From the IMG/VR virus record IMGVR_UViG_2690316318_000012, positions 1 to 4,064 of that record: a stretch of 4,064 nt of DNA. One strand, written 5' to 3'. A program made the position numbers. The stretch comes from a virus (lineage: Duplodnaviria; Heunggongvirae; Uroviricota; Caudoviricetes). Of this stretch, positions 3,001 through 4,064 are shown piece by piece; the stretch's first letter is position 1, and the number at the start of each line of letters is the position of its first letter.

Positions 3001-4064
3001 GCAGAAGCTGAATTGTCAAGAAAGACGGCAGAAAGTGCAGCCGGTAATGCATCCAGGGATACAACGACCGCAGCAGAAAAAGCCCGGGAGTCAGCAGAAA
3101 GCGCACAGTCAGCGGAAAAAAGCAGGATAGCGGCGGAAGAGGCCGTAAACCGAGTCCCCACCGTGGTGGGACCTCCCGGGCCAAAGGGGGAACAGGGGCC
3201 CGCTGGCCCTCAGGGGCCGAAGGGTGATAAGGGAGAGCGTGGTGACACCGGCCCTGTCGGGGCAACCGGCGAACGGGGACCGGGAGGAGATACAGGTCCG
3301 GCAGGCCCGCAGGGGCCGAAAGGCGACAGGGGTGAACGGGGAGAGACCGGTCTGACGGGAAGTACAGGTCCACAGGGGCCAAAGGGAGATACCGGTGCAG
3401 CAGGCCCGGCAGGCCCACAGGGACCGAAAGGAGAAACAGGAGCGGCAGGTCCGGTGGGGGCTACCGGACCTCAGGGGCCGAAGGGAGACCCGGGCGAGAC
3501 ACAAATCCGTTTTCGTCTGGGGCCGATGAGCATTATTGAGACAAACAGCCATGGCTGGTTCCCGGATACAGATGGTGCGCTCATCACCGGACTGACCTTT
3601 CTTGACCCCAAAGATGCCACACAGGTTCAGGGGATGTTTCAGCATTTGCAGGTCAGATTTGGTGACGGGCCGTGGCAGGATGTTAAGGGGCTGGATGAAG
3701 TGGGCAGTGATACAGGCAGAACAGGAGAATGACATGAACATACTAAAAAAACTTATGCTGCGTCTGTGTGGTTGCGGAAAGCATGATGGCCGTGAACACG
3801 GGCAGTCACTTACAGCACAACTGCGACTGGGGCCGGCAGACATCCTGGAGTCAGATGAGAATGGTATTATCCCGGAGCAGGCCAGGGTAATCACGCAGGT
3901 GGTGATACTGGATGCGGATAAAAAGCAGATACAGTGCGTGGTAAGACCGCTGCAAATTCTGTGGATTTGCCCCTATATTTCCAGACACCTGTTATCACTT
4001 AACCCATTACTGGCCTGCTGCCGTAGATATTCCCGTGGCGAGCGATAACCCAGTGCACTATGCG

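Follow-up and report, generated by a model that had tools for sequence, protein, structure and literature searches.

The 104-codon open reading frame that follows the side tail fibre gene (stf) is almost certainly a pseudogene-type chimera made by transposition. The window analysed here, 4,064 nucleotides long, is the entire contig CYCK01000080.1 (4064 bp) of the draft assembly GCA_001286085.1. In lambdoid prophages of the EHEC/EPEC type, stf is followed by a gene of 89 codons; our alignments show an IS2-family element inserted after its codon 76, and translation shows the transposase of the inserted IS2 on the minus strand. The event is ordinary prophage decay, and the disrupted gene is already known and abundant in prophages. 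No new protein family is to be inferred from the Cys/Arg/Leu-rich tail of the product.

Read directly from the window, the frame starts at ATG 3734 and ends at TAA 4046-4048. The ribosome binding site AGGAG of the small gene (3723-3727, plus strand) lies within the last stf codons, 6 nt 5' of the ATG, and a single base, C 3733, separates the stf stop TGA (3730-3732) from the start codon. The original prediction had described this frame, its binding site and the 1-nt gap, and direct reading confirmed all three, together with the N- and C-terminal peptides that it quoted. The 23-nt junction between stf and the small ORF, AGGAGAATGAcATG, is identical in 79 of 82 independent homologous copies, taken from IMG/VR viral contigs and E. 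coli genomes; judged by this comparison, chance is excluded as the origin of the junction.

The frame of the small ORF is also open for 44 codons 5' of the ATG (3602-3733, plus strand), where it overlaps the stf 3' end. The same upstream frame is open in L037, and the database entries P0008 and P0024 begin within the extension. Because the frame is open from 3602, a programmed frameshift from Stf into the small ORF was considered; it was rejected, as a slippery site and any other support are absent and the small gene is provided with conserved start signals (RBS and ATG) of its own.

The native 5' part of the frame (3734-3961, plus strand) corresponds to codons 1-76 of the 89 codons of a stand-alone PfC-domain gene, according to PF06820, phrog_576 and the alignment with FORC_042. 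The product had been described as having no recognisable family, which did not hold. It matches Pfam PF06820 (Phage_fiber_C) with an E-value of 2.9e-25 and 88.8 bits (cut-off 25), and phrog_576 of PHROGs, 'tail fiber protein', with an E-value of 8.8e-49 over positions 1-76 of 89; relatives are annotated as 'phage tail fiber C-terminal domain-containing protein'. The Pfam match spans residues 28-76 and only profile positions 1-51 of 64, i.e. the window product is a truncated member and not a complete domain. NCBIfam has no model matching the small protein.

The intact gene of FORC_042, 270 nt long and encoding 89 aa, is 99.1% identical to the window over 3734-3961. Its product ends with RPLQILRADGTWENIGGMK before the stop, and the 89-aa form ends with RADGTWENIGGMK. 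This intact product consists of an N-terminal extension of about 27 residues (MNILKKLMQRLCGCGKHDGREHGQS) and a stand-alone PfC domain (PF06820). Compared with the WP_001023428-type 89-aa protein (PF06820/phrog_576), residues 1-76 of the window product are 96-99% identical, and both the position and the junction after stf are the same. Unlike that protein, the window copy is without residues 77-89, has 28 IS-encoded residues instead and carries a private Q9L change, found in 0 of the 82 other copies. Folding of the intact loci gives a strong hairpin with a U-run about 18 nt 3' of the stop (-19.3 kcal/mol, z -3.2), which was missed by the simple terminator scan. Since this hairpin lies so close behind the stop, the gene closes the stf unit, ahead of NleG-type effector genes. 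A scan for a promoter-like site of the small gene found none.

Of 5426 complete E. coli genomes, 694 carry the 228-nt native part, with a median of 9 places per genome, which fits multi-prophage EHEC/EPEC lineages, and the native gene occupies 5837 places in the complete E. coli genomes. The length is exactly 89 aa in 81 of the 82 sampled copies. Among 66 distinct nucleotide sequences the mean pS is 0.114 and the mean pN 0.017, so that pN/pS is 0.15 overall, with 0.09 for the PfC part (pS 0.126) and 0.34 for the N-terminal extension. The conservation and dN/dS check proposed for the frame thus shows a conserved native part, and the constant length, the shared stf junction and this substitution pattern indicate that the native small gene is real and under purifying selection. 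In the alignment of the small proteins with the PfC sequence of the window's own Stf, D79, G80 and W82 are invariant. The CGCG motif noted earlier near the N-terminus also proved real and conserved, and the longer LCGCGK is retained in the 78-aa homologue of Citrobacter rodentium; no plausible signal peptide precedes the motif. A bacterial lipoprotein was considered and rejected: only MNILKKLMQR stands before LCGC, interrupted by K, K, Q and R, and in the C. rodentium homologue LCGCGK is preceded by MHS alone.

Two kinds of rearranged copy were seen beside the complete ones. In L037, L067 and L058 (3475-3571) and in L040 and L048 (3476-3572), nt 130-226 of the small gene recur with 93-94% identity some 700 bp 3' of the complete copy, beside effector-type ORFs; this partial second copy has the look of a scar left by recombination where effectors are exchanged. 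In P0043, P0051, P0053 and P0055 the PfC part is kept from 'REHG' on and the N-terminal 20 or so residues are unrelated (alignment A3), which suggests a recombination break point at the boundary between extension and domain.

Prophage homology stops exactly at 3961 in a megablast search of the 5426 complete E. coli genomes (660+ loci) and in 281 phage records, and the end is identical whether the region or the whole window is the query. In the FORC_042 alignment the shared CAAATTCTG is followed by CGTGCTGAC in the intact gene versus TGGATTTGCCCC in the window, which places the boundary between native and foreign sequence at residue 76/77 (nt 3961/3962). The odd C-terminal third that had been remarked on is thus real, but it begins here and not near residue 70, and CVVRPLQIL is still native. 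Among the three explanations offered with that remark, a gene that ends earlier comes closest, as native coding ends at 3961; the novel accessory protein or moron is replaced by a known, annotated and highly repeated prophage gene within the stf unit.

The foreign part, 3962-4064 on the minus strand, comes from a reverse-oriented IS2-family (IS3 family) element and comprises its right end. This part begins with the terminal inverted repeat TGGATTTGCCCCTATATTTCCAGACA, whose first bases sit at 3962, the exact end of host homology, and it exits at the contig end. All 12 matches listed for these 103 nt, located on E. coli chromosomes and plasmids, are 'IS3 family transposase' elements with 100% identity, and 2344 records have a best match of at least 99%. 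Annotated IS2 copies that share the terminus are identical at 96-97 of the 103 positions. On the minus strand, 3973-4062 encode the last 29 codons and the TAG stop of the IS2 transposase OrfB/TnpB, with the translation HSALGYRSPREYLRQQASNGLSDNRCLEI. This segment (4062-3973) matches positions 273-301 of the 301 of NCBIfam NF006918, 'IS2 transposase TnpB', with an E-value of 1.5e-13, a score below the whole-protein cut-off solely since 29 residues are available. The translation resembles the C-terminus of the DEC5B IS2 transposase. The window element is thus like IS2 both in its terminus and in the C-terminus of its opposite-strand OrfB, GYRSPREYLRQ.ASNGLSDNRCLEI followed by the stop.

On the plus strand, 3962-4048 is a fortuitous read-through of 28 codons (WICPYISRHLLSLNPLLACCRRYSRGER) and a TAA, antisense to the IS2 end. 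Homologues coding on the opposite strand had been named in the original prediction as evidence against the frame. They exist for the last 87 nt, where the IS2 coding strand is minus, but the native part stays on the plus strand. The terminator scan also reported a hairpin at 3952-3970, GCAAATTCTGTGGATTTGC then CCCTATATTT. It is made by the junction, the native GCAAAT pairing with ATTTGC of IS2, it has 3 GC pairs only, and it is probably fortuitous.

The same gene carries full IS2 copies in two other strains. In JNE132847 a 1331-bp IS (L085 2688-4018) is inserted after codon 51 with the duplication CCAGG, and in DEC5B another IS of 1331 bp (L002 5303-6633) is inserted in the stop codon with the duplication GAAAT. 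Both have the orientation seen in the window and the same first bases, TGGATTTGCCCC, and both have an imperfect inverted partner of this terminus at the other end. Over the 103 bp that are visible, the window variant differs from these two copies at 6-7 positions. The fusion protein of JNE132847 (P0071) ends with EQARWICPYISRHLLSLNPLQARCRRYSRGER, i.e. with the window tail fused at a different codon, and differs from it solely at 2 residues, which are those that distinguish the IS2 variants; the odd tail therefore belongs to IS2 rather than to the phage gene. A related read-through tail is found in DEC5B. With the window, three independent IS2 insertions in one orientation are observed in one 270-bp gene, after codon 51, after codon 76 and in the stop codon. 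IS2 may prefer targets at this place, or the number of insertions may follow just from the gene being present in so many copies. In E2348/69 an IS fragment lies just downstream of the small gene.

From the duplications CCAGG and GAAAT of these sister insertions we infer TTCTG (3957-3961) as the 5-bp target site in the window. After a simple insertion, the 1331-bp IS2 would be followed by TTCTG and then by CGTGCTGACGGGACGTGGGAAAATATTGGCGG.ATGAA.TAA. The window ends at 4064 because the draft contig breaks inside the multi-copy IS, as is usual for short-read assemblies; the distal end of the IS, the TTCTG duplication expected behind it and the final 39 nt of the gene lie outside the window. Searches with the junction, both exact and in degenerate form, gave no match in genome_contigs or metagenome_contigs. 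Since the far flank lies outside the window and the junction is unmatched, a simple insertion and an IS-mediated deletion or rearrangement fit the window alike. In the chimera, ribosomes would start at ATG 3734 and read 76 native codons, and would then continue into IS2 for another 28 codons, through its terminal inverted repeat and, in antisense, the transposase 3' end, up to the fortuitous TAA at 4046.

It is very unlikely that short-read assembly of the draft contig produced a chimeric join at 3961/3962. Such an artefact would agree with a window that is a whole 4064-bp draft contig ending 103 bp into a multi-copy repeat, with an odd 27-bp block near the contig's other end, and with an insertion site after codon 76 that occurs in no other genome of the collections searched. 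However, the foreign DNA begins at the first base of the IS2 terminal repeat, just as in the two 1331-bp insertions with duplications, no long repeat that might have led to a wrong join is common to the two sides of the junction, and the contig is recorded in 4 samples. We give equally little credence to the 104-aa chimera as a functional new variant, in which a truncated PfC domain with a Cys/Arg-rich tail is retained by the prophage or its host. Its start signals are intact, 28 codons of the IS can be read before a stop, and DEC5B and JNE132847 have comparable fusion ORFs with CDS annotation. The tail, however, is whatever the IS2 end encodes in that frame wherever it is inserted, as P0071 illustrates; each insertion allele is rare or unique against the 5837 places of the native gene, the invariant D-G-x-W segment is lost, and Q9L is private to this copy.

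The pseudogene-type chimera made by IS2 insertion has direct consequences for the product. The last 13 residues (77-89), including D79-G80-x-W82, are missing, and the truncated gene has lost its link to the terminator-like hairpin with which the unit closes in intact loci. With the D-G-x-W segment lost and the hairpin cut off, the truncated product would most likely be non-functional. Upstream, the 3' two-thirds of gene J (tip attachment/host specificity) occupy 1-2358 on the plus strand, identified by the Pfam domains Ig_J, Ig_J_second, Phage_Tail_Tip and Ig_GpJ_C and by relatives annotated as gpJ. Aligned with these relatives, J has an in-frame TAA at 74-76, within an aberrant 27-bp block (56-82). 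This block, GAAAAAAAAAAACCGCAGTAATGTGGT, contains an A11 run and stands for the conserved TTGAGGTGAACTGGATTGACCCGAAC(A) of the relatives at equal length. It occurs in no complete E. coli genome, and over its full length window 1-160 reaches at best 90.7% identity there; lying near the contig end, the block could be a real lesion or an assembly/read artefact. Because J also has an in-frame stop, the prophage looks generally decayed. Together, the truncated small gene and the J stop point to a decaying prophage, and the chimeric ORF is best treated as a pseudogene. More generally, ORFs of draft assemblies that run into contig ends can be gene-IS fusions, and an abrupt change of composition can mark a gene-IS junction, as it does here.

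For the intact 89-aa protein, the closest functional lead comes from the fibre itself. Residues 29-88 of the small protein align with residues 364-425 of the window Stf with 34% identity and an E-value of 4e-10. The PfC domain of the EPclA Stf, of the 437-aa EPclA class described in PMC3368898, trimerises alone, is poor in helix and nucleates the collagen triple helix anew once this has been melted (Ghosh et al. 2012, PMC3368898). The small gene downstream of stf is not discussed in Ghosh et al. 2012 (PMC3368898), the one pertinent paper that the literature search gave for PF06820/EPclA. The small protein is like the EPclA PfC domain (PMC3368898) in belonging to the same Pfam domain, in its 34% identity and in the pattern RLGP...IT...LD...LQ...DG.W; it is unlike it in being free-standing, with its own 27-residue N-terminal extension and without a collagen stalk. 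Since the Stf PfC domain trimerises and nucleates the collagen helix, its small paralogue most likely, by analogy, forms or joins a beta-rich PfC trimer, and would serve as a side-tail-fibre accessory in assembly or at the distal tip. An AlphaFold2 monomer of the 89-aa protein, from a 16-row alignment, is all-beta over 27-85 at low confidence (pLDDT 52.8). Sequence and profile searches of PDB gave chance-level matches only and no solved relative.

The position directly downstream of stf, with closely coupled start signals, is that of lambda Tfa. Unlike lambda Tfa and the Caudovirales chaperones, the small protein has no match to a Tfa/Caudo_TAP family in Pfam at E<=1, in NCBIfam or in PHROGs. 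The earlier statement that the product does not resemble lambda Tfa was therefore right: the Pfam scan at E<=1 gave PF06820 alone. A Tfa-family gene or remnant is located further downstream in L001 (8287-8418) and L086 (3156-3737), past effector genes or an IS fragment; in these related prophages Tfa is thus an entity distinct from the small PfC gene. A defence or moron protein was also tried and rejected, as PADLOC gives no defence match for the small protein, a promoter-like site was not found, the gene shares the stf unit and the hairpin follows it in intact loci.

The proposal that the intact 89-aa protein is a tail-fibre accessory of uncharacterised kind, a free-standing paralogue of the fibre trimerisation domain, is a tentative one. 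It is allowed by the pN/pS of 0.09, the fixed coupling to stf and the conserved LCGCGK. It appears rather improbable that the native small gene is instead a non-working old stf 3' end, displaced by a new collagen-PfC module and passively carried. A displaced end would explain why the gene is paralogous to the Stf C-terminal domain and directly follows stf, and it would suit a recombination-prone region with partial extra copies (nt 130-226) downstream in some loci and variants with 20 swapped N-terminal residues. On the other side, the gene starts from a conserved RBS and ATG of its own, its length is fixed at 89 aa in all but one of the sampled copies, the low pN/pS of the domain is measured at a pS of 0.126, and the homologue of Citrobacter rodentium keeps the LCGCGK motif. 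If the accessory proposal is true, the small protein may template or cap the PfC tip or form mixed trimers, replacing the Tfa chaperone in EHEC/EPEC lambdoid phages. A small PfC gene that is abundant in prophages of pathogenic E. coli and under selection makes this a modest and tractable tail-fibre question.

The stf gene itself (2419-3732, plus strand) encodes a 437-aa collagen-like side tail fibre and appears intact. It has the EPclA architecture of PfN, coiled coil, collagen and PfC, with Pfam matches to PF08400 (residues 1-133), PF01391 (302-360) and PF06820 (363-426). Between J and stf, the consensus scan found a terminator-like hairpin with a T-run (2379-2408, plus strand), with an 8-pair stem including 6 GC pairs. 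The interval 2359-2418 contains no lom (Ail/Lom) gene, and lom is likewise absent in FORC_042 and 377323_2f; in many close relatives it is present at this place and splits the alignments in two.
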